DNA of 62,903 nt, the filler included, from Stramenopiles sp. TOSAG23-3 (taxonomy: Eukaryota): NCBI GenBank assembly GCA_900128585.1. It is 9 parts of 9 records of this genome, joined end to end, with 100 filler letters (N's around TTAATTAATTAA, not from the genome) between each part and the next. Parts side by side here need not be neighbours in the genome. Positions count along the whole stretch, not along the records: positions 25,674 to 34,112 come from LT643019.1; 8 more parts are not named here. One strand, given 5' to 3'. Under the pieces are notes generated by a model. That model saw only the letters and a list, made by a program, of their open reading frames with translations, was not told the DNA's origin and did no database searches. Below are positions 25,791 through 32,715 of the stretch, piece after piece. The position numbers and the translations under genes were made by a program. How positions within the stretch are numbered: the first letter of the stretch is position 1; each line of letters opens with the position of its first letter.

Positions 25791-26967
25791 ATGTTTGACG
25801 ATTTGTGCCACGGCGGGGTAGGCAAGTATGCCTTTCCGGTGATGATGATGGGATCGTTGGCGCTTCACGTGTGGGACGTGGCGTCCGACATACTGGTGGC
25901 GATCCTCCTCTACCACGAAGACAAAGTATTCTTCGGCATATCGATAGGAGTGATGGTGTTGGGGAGTCTGTTTGGTAGTTTTGCGAGTGTGATCTTTGGG
26001 AGTTTGAAATCTAGAATGGAAGGTGGAAATGGCGGAAGCGAAAACGAAAATACTCCAGCCATTGACGCTTCCACCGTTGCCGGTTGCCTGTGCGGTCTGA
26101 CCCAGCTGGAAATCTTCGTCGATGCTTACTTCTCCATTCGGTTGGGGAAGAAAACGCAAGGCTTCGTTTTCACGCGCCTCTTTGAAGGAATGGTGGAAAG
26201 CGCCCCGCAATCCTTGCTCCAACTCTACATCGTCTTGAAACGTGCGGACGGCGTGATCGACGGGGAAGACGTCCTCCTCTTTGCGAGCATCGGCACGTCG
26301 GTGGTGTCGATGGCGGTCGGGGTAAGTCAGTTCGAACGGTGGAGTGTGAAAGGCGATAGGAAGTACGTTATCCCACTCTTTTCCCGATACAACGTTGCCC
26401 TGAACACCTACCATATGCTGGAGATTGCCGCACGAATGGGGCTGTTGGCGTGCGTCGGCATTGCGTGGAGCGGGTGGGCGATATTATAAGTGCGATGGGG
26501 CGTTTCTGGGAGCGCTCCTTGGTGTCGGTTGCCTTGCGTCCCAGTATTTTGGATTTTCGAGTGCTACTCCTGACATAATGCGAGACTACCTCAAATACCA
26601 CTGGCTTCCCAAAACTCTGGAAGGGTTCGTGATGATTCCGTTCATCGTCGTCAAACTGACCCAAGCGCACACCTACTCATTTATGCTCTTCAGCGTCATC
26701 GGGATGGCGTGCTTCGTGCTTCAATACGTCCCGCTGTTTTATCTGTTGAAATGGGCGAGCAATGCAACGAAAGATAGAGATGTCGATGATAAGTGCCCCC
26801 AACCAAGCGAGGTCTTCGTGTTCCCCTTCTGCTCCAAGAACTTGGACGATAGTGTAGGAGGAGTATTAAAATGGAAGGAATACGAAGCGCAGCAGAAAGA
26901 GAAAGAAGAGAAGAAGAAGAAAGAGGAAGAGAAAAAAATGACGAAAATAACCCCGGTCCAACCATAA
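25791..26967 (+). pseudogene. XK-related (XKR) membrane protein with a frame break at ~26487
   Basis: WDVASDILVAILLY and FEGMVESAPQSLLQLYI are XK motifs. TAA at 26487-26489; hydrophobic sequence continues in the +1 frame to 26967. Could be a pseudogene or an assembly error. Confidence 0.7.
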
Positions 26968-26982
26968 GTTAACTTCTAGATG

Positions 26983-26987
26983 AAAAA
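26983..26987 (-). terminator. Pol III-type T5 terminator
   Basis: TTTTT directly after the tRNA discriminator. It is the first run of 5 or more T on the minus strand downstream of 27615. Confidence 0.7.
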
Positions 26988-27059
26988 TTACACTGACTGG
27001 AGTCGAACCAGCTACCTCCGCGTTATGAATGCGGTGCTCTGCCGTTGAGCTACAATGTA
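26988..27059 (-). tRNA. tRNA with CAT anticodon (elongator Met-type fold)
   Basis: 72-nt cloverleaf: acceptor TACATTG/CAGTGTA, D arm GCTC-AACGGCA-GAGC, anticodon arm CCGCA-TTCATAA-CGCGG, T arm GCTGG-TTCGACT-CCAGT, discriminator A. No encoded CCA. Followed by T5. Confidence 0.92.
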
Positions 27060-27063
27060 TTGT

Positions 27064-27349
27064 GCACAAATGAGAAAGTGAACACTGTAAGATAGATGGA
27101 GAATAGGGTTACAGATTTGGACCTTATCTTTGTTAGTGGAGAGACTTTGTATGAAGAACCCTTTGGGTACTAGTCTTGTAGTTTACGATTCTACATCTCT
27201 TTTAGGCTTCACGCCCACGTCACCAACAATGATATTCCAACTACCGTATCGTTCAATACAACCTATATGATCGTACTCTACAACGCTACCTATCCCCCCG
27301 TTTGATTAGCTGGAGAGAAAAGGAACAGCATTCTTGGCTCATTCTGTGC
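27064..27349 (-). ncRNA. Putative ~286-nt structured RNA, family unassigned
   Basis: Nested long-range helices with several G-U pairs on the minus strand: 27349-27338/27074-27064, 27333-27325/27088-27080, 27294-27288/27097-27091, 27229-27221/27138-27130, plus local hairpins. Confidence 0.65.
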
Positions 27350-27434
27350 TGATGTGTCGAGGAGTCTAACCTCGATTCTAGACACGTTTCTAGTCGTCAA
27401 CGGACCACACCTTTACCACTTAGACCACATGGCA
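27347..27434 (-). ncRNA. tRNA-like element B
   Basis: A-box-like TGGTCTAAGTGG. Arm TGGTC-CGTTGAC-GACTA. T arm TCGAGG-TTAGACT-CCTCGA. Irregular acceptor stem. Confidence 0.6.
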
Positions 27435-27535
27435 TATATTATATATTCTTCTGTTTTTTTCCATATATATATATTAAATGTGTAAAAGAATCAAACTCTT
27501 ATGTCATCCATCAGGTCACATTCAGAGGTATCCCT

Positions 27536-27615
27536 CTGGGAAGAAAATAAAGGAGTCGAACCTTCCACCGAAGCACCGACAGATGCTAGGGTCAGCCATT
27601 GAAGTTTCCTTCCAG
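27536..27615 (-). ncRNA. tRNA-like element A
   Basis: Terminal stem GGAAGGAAA/TTTTCTTCC. T arm GAAGG-TTCGACT-CCTTT with perfect B-box GGTTCGACTCC. Central arm AGCAT-CTGTCG-GTGCT. Confidence 0.6.
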
Positions 27616-27631
27616 TAAATTAGAATTGTAC

Positions 27632-27638
27632 ATTTATA
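27632..27638 (-). promoter_or_regulatory. TATA box (TATAAAT) upstream of the ncRNA cassette
   Basis: Lies ~17-23 nt upstream of element A. A (TA)n tract at 27463-27474 lies ~30-40 nt upstream of element B. Confidence 0.45.
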
Positions 27639-27678
27639 CCCCAAAGTACTATTAATATCAGTTACTATTTTTAAAAGT

Positions 27679-27921
27679 ATGATCCGTAGTATACTTCATT
27701 TAAATAGGAGAACATTATTTTTAACTCAACCGTATTCCACTGTTAAACCGTACGAGGTGGCAGAATCGGAGGAGAGGGACTTACCATCACCAGATGAAGT
27801 AAACGAAGTAAAGCATCGAATCGATAATAAGAGCGAATACGACGATAATAATTACTTTGCGGAGCAGCTCGCCAGTGGCGAAAATTATTCCAATATAAAA
27901 CGTGACATAGGCAGAAAATAG
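27679..27921 (+). CDS. Small hypothetical protein (80 aa)
   Basis: ATG to TAG. R/L/S/T-rich acid-free N-terminus, then an acidic body. Divergent from the RNA cassette. Confidence 0.45.
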   Translation: MIRSILHLNRRTLFLTQPYSTVKPYEVAESEERDLPSPDEVNEVKHRIDNKSEYDDNNYFAEQLASGENYSNIKRDIGRK

Positions 27922-28115
27922 ATTGTGGAGGTATTAATAGCTACCATAATAGCAAAAAAAAAAAAAAGAAGAAGAAGATAAAAATGAATTGCATTTTTTG
28001 ATGCGGCGTGTTTTTTTTTTACAGAGTGCATGCAAATGTTTTATATCGGTGCATACTAGGAAAAAGAAAACACACACACACGCACACACAAACACTAACT
28101 TCATTCAGACAAACC

Positions 28116-29123
28116 ATGCTGCGAACCTTTCTCTTTCTGTGCTGCCTGTCCGCGGGCGCACACGCCAGAATGAGCTGGCCCGAAACAAAATACTCATACG
28201 TCGACCCGGTGTTCACTGCGTACAATCCATCAGACTATTCCATCGATACAAAGGCAATAGGCGCGTACGCAAAGCAGTCGGTTGACAGTGGGGTCAACGT
28301 GATCCTTTTGGGGGGGTCAACTGCGGAATGGCCTTCTTTGACCCAACAGGAACGGTTGGAGCTTTTGAAGGCGTGGCGAACGGCGGTCGATAGCTTGTCT
28401 TACTCGGAAGGGTCTGAGAAGCCGCAGATTCTCTTTCACGCGGGGGATATTTCAATTGCAGCGGCACAGACGTTGGCATCCAAGTCGAAAGAGTACGGTG
28501 CCGACGCCATTTTGATAGTTAGCCCTTGCATCATGAAGCCGCCCACGGTGCAGGACTTGGTGAGCACTATCAAGTCGATCGCCGGAATGGCCCCCAGCCT
28601 CCCGTCCGTTTATTACCACTATCCTGCACTCTACACAGTGGATTTTAAAATGGACGAATTCCTTGACCTTTCATCTGATCCAGTGCACGGGATCCCTACT
28701 TTGGCCGGGGTCAAGTACATCGACGGAGACATGAACACGTTCACCAATGCAACGGGTGTTGAAAATTCCTCCTACACCTTATTCAACAATGATCCTCTCC
28801 TTGCTGGGATGGCAGCCGGAAGCAAAGGAGCGATTTCGTACACAACGATTTTCCCGATGGTTCAGAAGATGAGAGCCGCGTACGAAAGCGGCGACATGGA
28901 CGCCGCGCGCAAAATTGAAAGGGACATAATCGAATATGGCGCGCTTATCAATACCTACGGCGCAAAGTCGGCTGCACGAAACTTACCAAAGCTTTTTGGA
29001 GGGCCCGACCTCGGCCCACCGCGACCGCCTCTTGTTCCTCAGACGCCAGAGCAGTTCAATTCGTTTAAGGCGGCCCTGGAAGCGGCTGGTTTTCTGCAAG
29101 GTGGCGACAAGTACTACTTGTAA
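28116..29123 (+). CDS. N-acetylneuraminate lyase / DHDPS-family class I aldolase with signal peptide
   Basis: GSTAEWPSLTQQER, GADAILIVSP, YYHYPALY, Schiff-base GVKY, LGPPRPPL. N-terminal MLRTFLFLCCLSAGAHA. Confidence 0.88.
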   Translation: MLRTFLFLCCLSAGAHARMSWPETKYSYVDPVFTAYNPSDYSIDTKAIGAYAKQSVDSGVNVILLGGSTAEWPSLTQQERLELLKAWRTAVDSLSYSEGSEKPQILFHAGDISIAAAQTLASKSKEYGADAILIVSPCIMKPPTVQDLVSTIKSIAGMAPSLPSVYYHYPALYTVDFKMDEFLDLSSDPVHGIPTLAGVKYIDGDMNTFTNATGVENSSYTLFNNDPLLAGMAAGSKGAISYTTIFPMVQKMRAAYESGDMDAARKIERDIIEYGALINTYGAKSAARNLPKLFGGPDLGPPRPPLVPQTPEQFNSFKAALEAAGFLQGGDKYYL

Positions 29124-29433
29124 AAAAATGAAACAGATTAATATTTTCCAAAGAAAATATGTGCATGCTTACGTTCAGTTCAGTTCACTACACAGTAATG
29201 TGAAATTGTGAGCTAGTTCCTGCAAAATCTGTGTGAGGAGAAAAGTAGTGATAACTACGACCTTGTAACTTAAACTTCGTGATTCATCAGGGAATGATAG
29301 TCAAGACAAGTGGACAAGTTTTTTTCATTAAAATAATATGATAAGGCATTTCCTACATATACTTTTTGTCTCATTTCTTATTTTCCCTTTTTTGTTGTTG
29401 AGATCAAAATATTATATTAATAAATATGATAAT

Positions 29434-29976: not shown

Positions 29977-30378
29977 TCTCTTTTTTATTTTTATTATTTA
30001 TTATTATACAACTTCTTTCTTTCTTCTCTTTTTTATTTTTTAAACTTTTATTCTATACTGTGTACCTGTTAATTTAGAGCGTATCTTTTTTGTGTGTGTC
30101 ATGTCACTCTATAACAACAACGCAATAAATAATAAAAAACAAGAAGAACACTCCTCATCATCATCACATCAAAGAAGACCTCGTACGGATGACATCATAT
30201 TTCAATGTGCTCTCCTTCTTCGTTCACATAGATTTATTACATGATAGAATTATCATATCAGATACAAAAATTAGTTAAATCAGGAGCATTTGTATGTATG
30301 CCCGTAAATCTAGAATTCATCAAAAGAGTGCCACGTTTTGCCCCAGGCGCACAGACGGCAGAGAAACGAAAATTTCGA

Positions 30379-32715
30379 ATGATACCGTCTCCGCTTTCCT
30401 CGCCTGCTTACAGCAGTGGCAGTGACGATGATAGAGACGGGTCAGGCAAGGAAGTTTCTCACACGAACAATAAAAAACCAGCAGTTGCCCCGTCAACGTT
30501 AACAGCGAAGGAAAGTGCAGATAGGAAGGCCACCAAGAGCCGGCTAAAAGCGGAGGGAATAAATAGTATGTACATGGAATTGAGAGAGGAGGTTTATGTG
30601 CGCCTAAGTGCGCTTCGAGAAAGTGAAAGTGGCATTGACAGCTTGAAACACTATTTCTTGGACGTCCCGAACTCCGAGCAAGCAGTAGTTCTTGGTCTCC
30701 TGACTCTACACTTTTTCCAGATGCAAGAATTCGACGAGACAAGTTTGTCGTTCCTTCGCCTCACATTTTCGGTATCGGAGCGGCAGAGGATGGGTATGAT
30801 TGGCGTGATCGACAAAATGTTGCGGTACGAAAGAAAGAACAGGGCGAAGCTCGCAAGCCGCAATTCCGTTCGTTACAGTGACGTTTGGGCGGAGCATCTC
30901 CCGGCGATCGTCAAGGCCTGCTGCAACGGTATAACGTCCGCGAAACTCACAAAAGTTCAAAAGTTTCTTTCGCACTGGCGCAAGGGGCGGTTTCTACTAC
31001 CGTTTCTTCAGGACAAGGTGGAATCCGCTGCAAATTCAGTGATAACGGGGCGAGCTGCCCGGAGAGGCACCTCGGGGGGGACGACGAAAAGAAAACGGGA
31101 ACGTGACAAAAAGTCGCTGTCGTCCAGGCACAAAGCAGCCAAAGAGCCGAGATCGTCCAGCGGACAATCAAGGTGGATCATGGACACCCTAGACCTCGAG
31201 ATTCCTGTGGACGAAAGTGAGTTCTTTTTGTCTGTTACCCCCCCGCCGCGCAGTTCAGACGACGAGGATTTTCACGTGGAAAAAGACGAAGCCCGACTCC
31301 GACAGGAAGAAATCGAACGCGAGGAACGGGCCAGGGAGCGCATGCGAAACATGTTCCCGTTGAATGTGTACAACAAAGAGACCGATGAAAACCGCAGGCG
31401 GCGGTCGCTGGGCAGGTACAATTTCAGTTTCGTGCCCAGCACAGACCTAGCTTCACCGGTCTCGGAGCGTGCCCGGTCGCAGTGCATGACTGACATTATG
31501 ATTCAGATGAAGGTAGCAACTAAATGCCAGGACGAGAAGATTGCTGGAAAACTGGTAGGAAACTGGATGTTTGACCTTGTCCACATACGATCGGCCCACG
31601 GTGGCTCGGGAAGGAAGGGGCCAAAGCTGGACCCGGTCTTTCAGGCCGACAATTATCCGGCCTTAAAAGAAGCGTTCAACCATCGGTTCAAGGCCAGCAA
31701 TTTGATTAAAAGCGGCAGCGCCGTTTCCAAGCCAGAGGAGGTTTCAAAGCTGTGCGATAAACTTTACAAGGAGGTGATTTGTGGCCACATGTGTGCGCAT
31801 GCCGAAAAGATCGGAGGGGGCAGACAAAGGGATGGGAAGGTGATCATGGTGAAGGACGCGTCTCAAATAGCCTCCAAGCACCCTCTGGTGAAGCTGGTGT
31901 TGCAAGGCACAGACGCAAACATCAAACTGCTGCAGTCAAAGTACGACCAATTGAAACACGAATTTCTTGCAGACCACGCATTTGAAAACCATAAGGGAAC
32001 GTCTCAAACAGAGCAGCAGAGCACCGACCTGTTCCACACTAGGCTGTTTTGCATGCAGTTGCGGTACGAAACGCTGTTTGCGAACAACTCGGGCTCCCAG
32101 GGGGCCGTGCCCCCCATCGTGTTCGATTTGCTTCGGAAACTGGTGAACGTCGACGGGGAATGCTTTGCGTCGCCCTTGAACCATACCCTTCCGTTGTACT
32201 TCAGTGCATTCCCAGACGTGGACCAACCGTTTGGGAGCCTCGGGTCATTCTTCGACGACCGTTACAACGTAGTAGTATCGGGATGCTGGGAATGCAACCC
32301 GCCCTTTGACATTAGGTCCATTTCACGGGCGTTGGAAAAAATGCAAACGTCCCTTGCCGCCGCCGAACAGCATCGAAGGAGCCTGACCTTTATCGTGTTT
32401 TTTAACCACACGGACAACCCATTGCTTCTTGGACAGCTTGCGGATCTGAAACCATTCACACGAGGGCAGCGGCTATTGAAAGAGCACTGCTACATGCACG
32501 GGTTTCACCACACCGAGGCGTACAACGAGTACTGGCGTTCAGAACGCCAATCGTTGTTTTCCTTGTTCCAGACAACTGGCGGGTACGCCGAACATTGCCA
32601 TTCTAACCCTCATCGAGTGAATTGGATTATGAATCAAGTTGAGCACGCCTTTTCTTTGAACCTTGTGGACGTCAGATCATCAAAAAAAAGACTGTACAAA
32701 AAAAAAAAGGAGTAA
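30379..32715 (+). CDS. PCIF1/CAPAM-like adenine N6-methyltransferase with putative N-terminal CTD-interacting domain
   Basis: LRYETL, ECFASPLN, FSAFPDVDQPFGSLGSFFD, catalytic NPPF (32296-32307). Start uncertain (30241, 30298 or 30379). Confidence 0.85.
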   Translation: MIPSPLSSPAYSSGSDDDRDGSGKEVSHTNNKKPAVAPSTLTAKESADRKATKSRLKAEGINSMYMELREEVYVRLSALRESESGIDSLKHYFLDVPNSEQAVVLGLLTLHFFQMQEFDETSLSFLRLTFSVSERQRMGMIGVIDKMLRYERKNRAKLASRNSVRYSDVWAEHLPAIVKACCNGITSAKLTKVQKFLSHWRKGRFLLPFLQDKVESAANSVITGRAARRGTSGGTTKRKRERDKKSLSSRHKAAKEPRSSSGQSRWIMDTLDLEIPVDESEFFLSVTPPPRSSDDEDFHVEKDEARLRQEEIEREERARERMRNMFPLNVYNKETDENRRRRSLGRYNFSFVPSTDLASPVSERARSQCMTDIMIQMKVATKCQDEKIAGKLVGNWMFDLVHIRSAHGGSGRKGPKLDPVFQADNYPALKEAFNHRFKASNLIKSGSAVSKPEEVSKLCDKLYKEVICGHMCAHAEKIGGGRQRDGKVIMVKDASQIASKHPLVKLVLQGTDANIKLLQSKYDQLKHEFLADHAFENHKGTSQTEQQSTDLFHTRLFCMQLRYETLFANNSGSQGAVPPIVFDLLRKLVNVDGECFASPLNHTLPLYFSAFPDVDQPFGSLGSFFDDRYNVVVSGCWECNPPFDIRSISRALEKMQTSLAAAEQHRRSLTFIVFFNHTDNPLLLGQLADLKPFTRGQRLLKEHCYMHGFHHTEAYNEYWRSERQSLFSLFQTTGGYAEHCHSNPHRVNWIMNQVEHAFSLNLVDVRSSKKRLYKKKKE

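Follow-up and report, generated by a model that had tools for sequence, protein, structure and literature searches.

How might a large structured RNA be made if it is encoded between a tRNA gene and elements that have only the shape of tRNAs? This question is raised by a compact unit on the minus strand (positions 26983-27640) of 62,903 nucleotides (nt) (62.9 kb) of DNA from Stramenopiles sp. TOSAG23-3, the whole of which is referred to here as the window. An earlier note on this DNA had listed along the unit a TATAAAT motif, a tRNA-like element (A), two small hairpins, a second tRNA-like element (B), a long self-paired stretch, a tRNA with a CAT anticodon, and a run of five T residues (T5), and had interpreted them as a candidate RNA polymerase III (Pol III) cassette punctuated by tRNA shapes, giving either one precursor of ~630 nt or two TATA-driven transcripts. 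All of the listed features are present on direct reading. A tRNA-shaped substrate is cleaved by RNase P at its 5′ end and by RNase Z after the unpaired base that comes behind the acceptor stem, and a coaxial helix formed by the acceptor stem and the T arm suffices for both enzymes. The best explanation we can offer for the locus, which we favor with moderate confidence, is a previously undescribed structured noncoding RNA (ncRNA) of ~290 nt that would be carried in a longer precursor together with tRNA-shaped elements.

A conserved, structured RNA of about 290 nt

We scanned metagenome contigs with a 30-nt core of the tRNA and recovered five loci (L001 to L005). L001 lies on an independent metagenome contig and is 96% identical to the window over 1112 nt; because it spans the whole unit and both flanks in an independent assembly, it argues against a chimeric join, a possibility that the earlier note had wanted checked. 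L002 is 70.5% identical to the window over 370 nt comprising the RNA and the tRNA, and L005 is a near-identical partial copy of L002 that contains the tRNA and the final ~30 nt of the RNA. L003 and L004, which are identical to each other where they overlap, match the window in the tRNA only. A further member of the L002 lineage, L006, is a 3963-nt contig found in a genome collection with a three-block pattern taken from the RNA. The order A-like element, spacer, B-like element, RNA, tRNA is common to L002 and L006, as in the window.

Within the window, the stretch 27349-27060 folds at -84.3 kcal/mol (z = -3.29), and 1 of 200 shuffled sequences was as stable. The L002 homolog folded alone gives a z of only -1.91. 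All six reading frames of the stretch contain stops, and a small open reading frame (ORF) noticed by eye, an 18-codon ATG frame, was discarded, there being no ATG in L002. RNAalifold, applied to the window, L001, and L002, yielded a consensus of 77 pairs in 12 helices, with a terminal helix that joins the ends, a pair of hairpins close to the 5′ end, a single long-range helix, and a long helix (27240-27221 paired with 27138-27117) that closes three hairpins. Across these 77 pairs, 93.5% of cells are paired. Changes on both sides that leave the pairing intact are found at 21 of the 77, compared with 1 to 3 when the partners are slid by 1 to 3 columns, and none of 500 shuffles reaches the observed value. 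In one helix, all 5 of 5 pairs are compensatory, and the pair beside the GCGTGAAGC hairpin (columns 137 and 147) is G-C in the window and A-U in L002. Certain features of the data pull against the reading that we favor: the covariation is essentially one independent comparison, of the window type with the L002 type, on a structure that was obtained from those very sequences; in L002, 3 of the 7 pairs of helix 4 are broken; and, by reading, 1 of the 4 differences between L002 and L006 in the RNA breaks a pair.

We also counted substitutions segment by segment. Between L002 and L006, differences number 7 of 85 in the A-like element, 26 of 193 in the spacer between A and B, 0 of 44 in the B-like element, 4 of 280 in the RNA, 19 of 72 at the tRNA position, 17 of 52 in the trailer, 21 of 225 in intergenic DNA, and 21 of 390 in a neighboring ORF for a RING-finger protein. 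Between the window and L001, the corresponding counts are 2 of 80 (A), 8 of 101 (spacer), 0 of 85 (B), 1 of 290 (RNA), and 1 of 72 (tRNA), with 5 of 294 in the upstream region. B and the RNA are therefore the most constrained segments, beyond the neighboring protein gene. Conservation in a second lineage together with covariation moves the 290-nt stretch from a fold prediction, which is what the earlier note had offered, to a real, conserved, structured RNA that these comparisons support. A cargo that is both conserved and structured is accordingly present at 27349-27060, as judged by conservation, consensus fold, covariation, and substitution counts.

Reading the RNA by eye, we noticed a purine-rich run with two possible partners, a pyrimidine run close by, which would give a local hairpin, and a stretch rich in pyrimidines toward the 3′ end (blocks 27295-27300, 27098-27107, and 27137-27145, minus strand). 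The latter pairing would comprise ~10 base pairs (bp) in the window and 8 bp plus a bulge in L002. A third, similar pyrimidine block is also present. The RNA may adopt an alternative pairing or a pseudoknot.

tRNA-shaped elements at both ends of the RNA

On the 3′ side, the earlier reading of a CAT tRNA holds firmly. ARAGORN calls a single tRNA in the whole window, tRNA-Met(cat) at 26988-27059(-), and a search of the whole window at Rfam gathering thresholds returns the same single match (RF00005; 59.3 bits, cut-off 29), with a full cloverleaf and a 7-nt anticodon loop. Judging by its T loop and arms, we take it to be of the elongator type. Relative to L002 and L003, its acceptor stem has changed on both strands with pairing kept.

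Elements A and B had been described as tRNA mimics. Both do have tRNA-like folds, but neither is called by ARAGORN, both fall below the Rfam cut-offs, and their folds lack a standard anticodon arm, so that neither passes as a true tRNA. We searched 1.4 kb of the window, L002, L003, L005, and L006 permissively against Rfam (E up to 10); in the 1.4 kb of the window, A scores 19.4 bits on tRNA-Sec (RF01852; cut-off 47, E 0.85) and B scores 15 bits on tRNA (RF00005; cut-off 29, E 9.5). Folded singly, A, B, and the tRNA are not significantly more stable than shuffled sequences (z = -1.05, -1.06, and -1.77, respectively).

B had been placed at 27434-27347. The element does lie within this span, but its structural core, as defined by folding B alone, is confined to 27411-27351 plus the unpaired A27350. 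In this fold, the acceptor-like stem is 6 bp long and the T arm has UUAGACU as its loop; the remaining parts are a 3-bp hairpin, with a loop of 4 nt, and one extra hairpin. The B-like elements of L002 (identical in L006) and L003 follow the same plan minus the extra hairpin, and their stem sequences differ. In the window and in L002, the RNA begins directly after the unpaired A of B. Tract by tract, tRNA-shaped elements directly abut both ends of the RNA in the window (B ending at 27351 plus A27350, and the tRNA starting at 27059), in L002, and in L006. These comparisons support an RNA whose 5′ neighbor in two lineages is a tRNA-like element and whose 3′ neighbor is a tRNA or tRNA-like element.

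A third lineage has a related arrangement. At L003 5972-6074 (minus strand), a B-like mimic is followed by a folded spacer of ~55 nt (z = -2.12) and then by the same tRNA-Met, without the 290-nt RNA. Within the L003 spacer there is a short motif resembling the RNA's invariant small hairpin, in a different order.

The fold of element A has an acceptor-like stem of 9 bp, a single long hairpin, and a T arm but no anticodon arm, and its 3′ strand includes a run of four T residues (T4). An 18-nt stretch over its T arm is 83% identical to that of tRNA-Met, and the A-like element of L002 repeats part of the anticodon-stem sequence of the tRNA and has a duplicated T arm. By its sequence, A is a decayed tRNA copy. 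It is most likely a separate small upstream unit, because the spacer that follows it evolves fast and holds T4 runs. The two small hairpins after A lie in this fast-evolving spacer; they have 6-bp stems, are present in the window and L001 only, with none in L002 by reading, and a T4 run at 27487-27484 follows the second. The AT-rich stretch upstream of B holds the indels between the window and L001. The T-arm motif said to be common to the three tRNA-type units, GGTTNGANTCC, is indeed shared: exactly 3 copies occur in the window, all on the minus strand within 26999-27562, compared with 0.36 expected by shuffles and 3 copies reached in 2 of 100 shuffles.

The simplest account of the unit would be chance, that is, a single tRNA gene accompanied by two decayed pseudogenes of tRNAs and by an AT-rich spacer that folds by accident. 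The poor stability of A, B, and the tRNA folded alone, the distance of A and B from the Rfam cut-offs, and the modest z of the L002 RNA are what such an account would predict. It is nevertheless contradicted by conservation, covariation, the substitution counts, and a B architecture common to three lineages, and we consider it highly improbable.

Comparison of the RNA with known families

Above Rfam thresholds there is the tRNA only, and the RNA has no match; the family search that the earlier note had named as a possible refutation therefore does not assign every part to ordinary families. At E up to 10, in every copy searched, the RNA matched no model for RNase P, RNase MRP, signal recognition particle (SRP), U3, telomerase, small nuclear RNA (snRNA), GOLLD, or ROOL. 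Several candidates were also inspected by eye and rejected. The conserved P4-type blocks of RNase P and RNase MRP RNA are unplaceable; SRP RNA and snRNA likewise lack a model match, and the SRP motifs do not fit; U3 is represented by two short resemblances without model support; and membership in GOLLD or ROOL fails for want of a model match. Neither H/ACA nor C/D boxes are seen at the RNA ends, and the sole snoRNA-type match to the RNA is an H/ACA model that scores just 21.2 bits in L006 against a cut-off of 80. For telomerase RNA, we followed the search logic in the accessible sections of one paper (PMC8287931). A template-like 8-mer, TAACCCTA, at 27104-27111 is not conserved in L002, and its 3 copies in the window, with 1.49 expected, are no enrichment. 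The literature search turned up no description of the ~290-nt RNA, the accessible sections of PMC10690425 included; supplements may list similar motifs.

There is a slight chance, in our estimate, that the RNA is a very diverged RNase MRP or RNase P RNA, SRP RNA, U3, or telomerase RNA that Rfam models miss in a deep lineage. The size (~280-290 nt) fits, the ends pair and a multi-helix junction follows, and, by reading, the terminal helices, early hairpin, long-range helix, and helix closing three hairpins recall RNase P/MRP; TAACCCTA would be a possible telomere template. RNA models could also fail in this organism: the named relatives of the SPOUT-type methyltransferase encoded in the window are at best 47-56% identical (unnamed environmental relatives, 59-62%), so the organism appears to belong to an uncultured lineage without a close named relative. 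Set against this are the empty permissive searches in all copies, the P4-type blocks that cannot be placed, an extra long hairpin on the wrong side of the central domain, and the lack of enrichment and conservation of the 8-mer. A housekeeping RNA would also be unexpected among the short orphan ORFs of L002, L005, and L006.

A tRNA-position variant without an anticodon arm

The L006 copy differs at the tRNA position (L006 3285-3350, minus strand), where it retains the acceptor, D, and T arms but has, in place of the anticodon arm, a stub that is ~7 nt shorter and is capped by a 4-nt loop. ARAGORN finds no tRNA at this 3′ element, and 864 nt of L006 searched at E up to 10 gave no Rfam tRNA match. 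B and the RNA beside the variant are almost unchanged relative to L002. Because the anticodon arm is lost while the other three arms are kept and the RNA is nearly unchanged, it is the tRNA shape, not decoding, that stays preserved next to the RNA, and the variant points to a tRNA shape acting as a processing signal. The L006 contig is filed under a Bacteroidetes metagenome-assembled genome despite its eukaryote-type cassette, its RING-finger ORF, and its near-identity to L002, and is most likely misbinned.

The variant bears on another explanation, in which the 290 nt would not be a stable RNA in their own right but would serve as a structured 5′ leader or spacer and control how the downstream tRNA is made or matured, with A and B left over from a tandem array of tRNAs. 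The decayed-copy character of A, seen both in its T arm and in the tRNA anticodon-stem sequence repeated in L002, would suit such an array; L003 has just its ~55-nt folded spacer between the B-like element and the tRNA; and the RNA always directly abuts the tRNA. A tRNA without an anticodon arm beside a nearly unchanged RNA and B is, however, hard to explain if the RNA serves only a decoding tRNA. Moreover, B and the RNA are more conserved than the neighboring ORF, and decay of pseudogenes would not keep 93.5% pairing with 21 compensatory pairs. We judge the leader explanation to be rather improbable.

Two genomic neighborhoods

In the window, the unit is flanked by an XK-related gene and a DHDPS-family gene. 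L002, L005, and L006 instead have dense short ORFs, among which Pfam families were assigned to the RING finger only. One of these orphan ORFs has 19 environmental relatives, 18 of them unnamed and one labeled "hypothetical protein," and a protein atlas search with the proteins of L002, L005, and L006 gave scores that were all <0.9. In L003, a kinase-like ORF and an ORF with a match to MutS domain I lie beside the tRNA and the B-like element. None of this ORF content in L002, L003, L005, or L006 proves a virus. Viral contigs, scanned with 6 DNA patterns and 1 protein, gave no true match; the only hit, L007, was rejected as a chance match in coding DNA without a tRNA. At L002 3100-3190, ~430 nt upstream of the A-like element, there are tandem 11-nt T/G-rich units, which do not match the C-rich part of the RNA.

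The whole cassette could belong to an element that is mobile or carried by viruses and passes between viruses and hosts, with an RNA that serves the element, for example in replication, packaging, or counter-defense. The two unrelated neighborhoods fit this, as do the orphan ORF with environmental relatives only, the same tRNA and B-like element beside the unlike genes of L003, and a tRNA core that is nearly identical across all contexts. Counting the other way are the empty scan of viral contigs, the lack of target-site duplications or terminal repeats around the window copy (by reading), and an RNA that is single copy in the 62.9-kb window. On this evidence, a mobile element seems unlikely to us.

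Proposed transcription and maturation

We return to the reading that we favor, an ncRNA within a precursor. In the window, the candidate signals of a type 2 Pol III gene are TGGTCTAAGTGG at 27427-27416, which resembles an A box, the T-arm motif (27371-27361), and, at 26987-26983, T5. As the earlier note had said, no T5 precedes 26987: on the minus strand of 27700-26950, the single T5 is that at 26987-26983, and the T4 runs are at 27676, 27547, 27487, and 27321. T5 after the tRNA is kept in L001, and the TATAAAT region (27616-27640) has 0 of 25 differences from L001; no TATAAAT equivalent is seen in L002 by reading. With its A-box-like and T-arm motifs, the AT-rich, TATA-like DNA upstream, and the terminal T5, the segment from B through the RNA to the tRNA looks in the window like one Pol III gene.

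The other copies and parts of the window copy itself speak less well for such a precursor. By reading, L002 has no A-box-like stretch before B. It also has no T run directly after the tRNA, and a T7 follows ~45 nt after the tRNA in L002 and L006; no T5 is found within ~400 nt downstream of the L003 tRNA. A T4 run lies within the RNA at 27321-27318. In all B elements, the position of the T-loop C in the B-box-like motif is occupied by A or U, and loss of this C should weaken the binding of TFIIIC. The 0-4 nt between the RNA and the tRNA fit co-processing and equally a plain structured leader. Finally, contigs of 4 RNA runs cover 28104-29200 and none covers 26855-28032, which is uninformative on expression because these contigs derive mostly from selected or assembled mRNA libraries. 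Since the signals are weaker or absent in L002 and L003 and the T loop of B deviates at C, we put Pol III transcription of the unit at about even odds.

Lying as it does between an element that resembles a tRNA and a genuine tRNA-Met, the RNA is probably excised by the enzymes that trim tRNAs. The precursor would run through B, the RNA, and the tRNA. RNase Z would recognize B and cut after A27350, generating the 5′ end of the RNA, and RNase P would recognize tRNA-Met and cut before U27059, generating its 3′ end. The products would be the ~290-nt RNA, a B RNA of ~62 nt, and the tRNA. As for what the mature RNA does, our guess, held weakly, is a stable RNA-protein scaffold tied to tRNA or translation. 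The overall interpretation in the earlier note thus stands in part. A conserved, structured RNA that belongs to no Rfam family and is bracketed by tRNA-type elements in two lineages bears it out; a single 630-nt precursor that includes A is its weakest part, the spacer between A and B being the fastest-evolving segment and containing two T4 runs. A bolder version seems to us a long way from probable, although worth stating: the RNA would represent a new, ornate class of ~290 nt found both in a marine protist that is uncultured and in DNA that is dense in genes and possibly viral; it would be matured wholly by the tRNA-processing machinery via dedicated tRNA mimics, one of them seen evolving from a working tRNA-Met by exchange of the anticodon arm for a capped stub; and it would act as a mobile factor, shared by host and virus, on tRNA metabolism or translation.

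Features of the unit and its surroundings

The features of the unit are collected in Table 1. The invariance of ATCATATAGGTT, GCGTGAAGC, and TCTTACAGTGTTC was judged on the 4 sequences of alignment A4.

Table 1. Features of the minus-strand unit, in order along that strand, with positions in the window
Feature	Position	Strand	Basis and remarks
TATAAAT	27632..27638	-	Read directly; ~20-25 nt upstream of element A
Element A, tRNA-like, closed by CUGG/CCAG	27539..27613 (span 27615-27536)	-	Sub-threshold Rfam tRNA-Sec match; fold
Two small hairpins after A: CAGAGG-GATA-CCTCTG (27538-27523) and AAGAGT-TTG-ATTCTT (27500-27486)	27486..27538	-	Read directly
AT-rich stretch with TATA-like runs, upstream of B	27434..27477	-	Read directly
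TGGTCTAAGTGG, A-box-like, in the leader just upstream of the B core	27416..27427	-	Read directly
Element B, compact tRNA-like cloverleaf	27350..27411	-	Sub-threshold Rfam tRNA match; fold
Conserved structured RNA, ~290 nt	27060..27349	-	Fold, comparison, covariation
ATCATATAGGTT, invariant 12-mer; loop and closing pairs of the second hairpin	27260..27271	-	Alignment A4
GCGTGAAGC, invariant small hairpin with a 5-nt loop	27206..27214	-	Alignment A4
TCTTACAGTGTTC, invariant 3′ block; 3′ strand of the terminal helix (helix 2)	27080..27092	-	Alignment A4
tRNA-Met(CAT)	26988..27059	-	ARAGORN; Rfam
T5 directly 3′ of the tRNA, candidate Pol III terminator	26983..26987	-	Read directly

Overlapping the TATA region upstream of A, positions 27631-27706 (minus strand) match the C/D snoRNA-like family snoR21 at 28.6 bits (cut-off 45, E 0.2); L001 has 2 substitutions there, and the match is probably chance in AT-rich DNA.

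The long ORFs of the window encode PP1, a protein with a PCIF1-type domain, and XK-related, PUB-domain, and DHDPS-family proteins, and with these genes the window has the look of nuclear DNA from a cellular eukaryote. The PCIF1-type protein is an 824-amino-acid ORF at 30241-32715 (plus strand) whose PCIF1_WW domain is matched at E 7e-39; the protist itself lacks close relatives that have been named. When the DHDPS-family protein was used to search metagenome contigs for synteny, no relative was found among 66 candidate stretches. Paired 44-nt blocks of N occur every ~8.5 kb over 8465-61375; they resemble masking more than assembly gaps and cut several ORF translations. The blocks are regular and lie away from the minus-strand unit.

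RNA runs were searched with a 3.2-kb query, which is too long to catch runs holding just the small RNA. The search returned 24 runs, each with about one third of the query words or fewer. The gene at 28104-29200 is present as mRNA at 100% identity in marine metatranscriptome contigs from several studies, and contigs from relatives cover pieces of 26079-26854. At position 26596, inside the XK-related gene, relatives' contigs from two RNA runs lose their match exactly, with no clear GT-AG intron. Just upstream of the DHDPS-family gene, 27943-28103 is low complexity and repeat rich; read mapping skipped this stretch, and the 5′ end of the mRNA is unplaced.

Comparison with known systems and significance

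Several known systems resemble the proposed arrangement in how an RNA is produced; we treat them as analogies and not as relatives. Plant tRNA-snoRNA genes are dicistronic Pol III genes with the tRNA in front. In Yarrowia lipolytica, the tRNA-5S rRNA genes are likewise dicistronic Pol III genes with the tRNA first, according to the accessible sections of the report (PMC2566860). The TOSAG23-3 unit would share with both, as far as those sections describe the latter, a tRNA-type element directly upstream of a second RNA without a promoter of its own, an end at a T run, and release by tRNA-processing enzymes. It differs in that its upstream element is a mimic rather than a working tRNA, its cargo has no known family, its cotranscription is a prediction, and a further tRNA or tRNA-like element bounds the cargo on the 3′ side. 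The cleaved leaders of yeast RPR1 and SNR52 bear A and B boxes, and in the dimeric tRNA-Ser/tRNA-Met gene of Schizosaccharomyces pombe, tRNA-Met is the downstream member. In these genes too, the promoter elements sit upstream, in a leader or tRNA that is subsequently removed by cleavage. Unlike the RNAs of RPR1 and SNR52, the RNA described here matched neither RNase P nor snoRNA models, and the T loop of B departs from the usual B box at C.

Large, ornate RNAs next to tRNA genes have a precedent in GOLLD and ROOL, which are bacterial and phage RNAs of ~600-800 nt that are represented in Rfam and are often found beside phage tRNA genes. The RNA described here is comparably large, ornate, and strongly conserved, and lies beside tRNA genes partly in virus-like DNA. 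In contrast to GOLLD and ROOL, it has no Rfam match, and no similarity to them was found.

Non-decoding tRNA mimics are used in animals and their viruses. The 3′ ends of MALAT1 (with mascRNA) and NEAT1 are processed at a tRNA mimic, as described in the accessible sections of two papers (PMC8457004 and PMC12941219). As there, a non-decoding mimic would serve here purely as a cutting signal for RNase P or RNase Z at the end of an ncRNA. From what those sections state, however, MALAT1 and NEAT1 are long vertebrate Pol II transcripts with one 3′ mimic, whereas the RNA described here is short and bracketed on both sides, and its 3′ element is a real tRNA in most copies. The tRNA-miRNA units (TMERs) of murine gammaherpesvirus 68, as presented in the accessible parts of PMC4337559 and PMC3482243, also combine non-decoding tRNA-like elements carrying internal Pol III promoter motifs with a structured RNA released by RNase Z, as we predict here. 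By the same accounts, TMER cargoes are pre-miRNA hairpins of ~60 nt in an animal virus; the cargo here is a 290-nt multi-helix RNA, and the small hairpins after A, with their 6-bp stems, are too short for pre-miRNAs.

What sets the TOSAG23-3 unit apart is its cargo, a strongly conserved multi-helix RNA without an Rfam family, in a deep, uncultured marine eukaryote and with relatives in unidentified, possibly viral DNA. To our knowledge, few natural RNAs are released by tRNA-processing enzymes, and the cargo elsewhere is of a known kind. The compact mimic B keeps the same architecture in three lineages, and the L006 variant would capture, in a way rarely seen in nature, a tRNA on its way to becoming a pure signal for processing. 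If its ends and function are confirmed, the RNA would found a new family, and the unit would be a natural counterpart of engineered tRNA-flanked cassettes for RNA expression.

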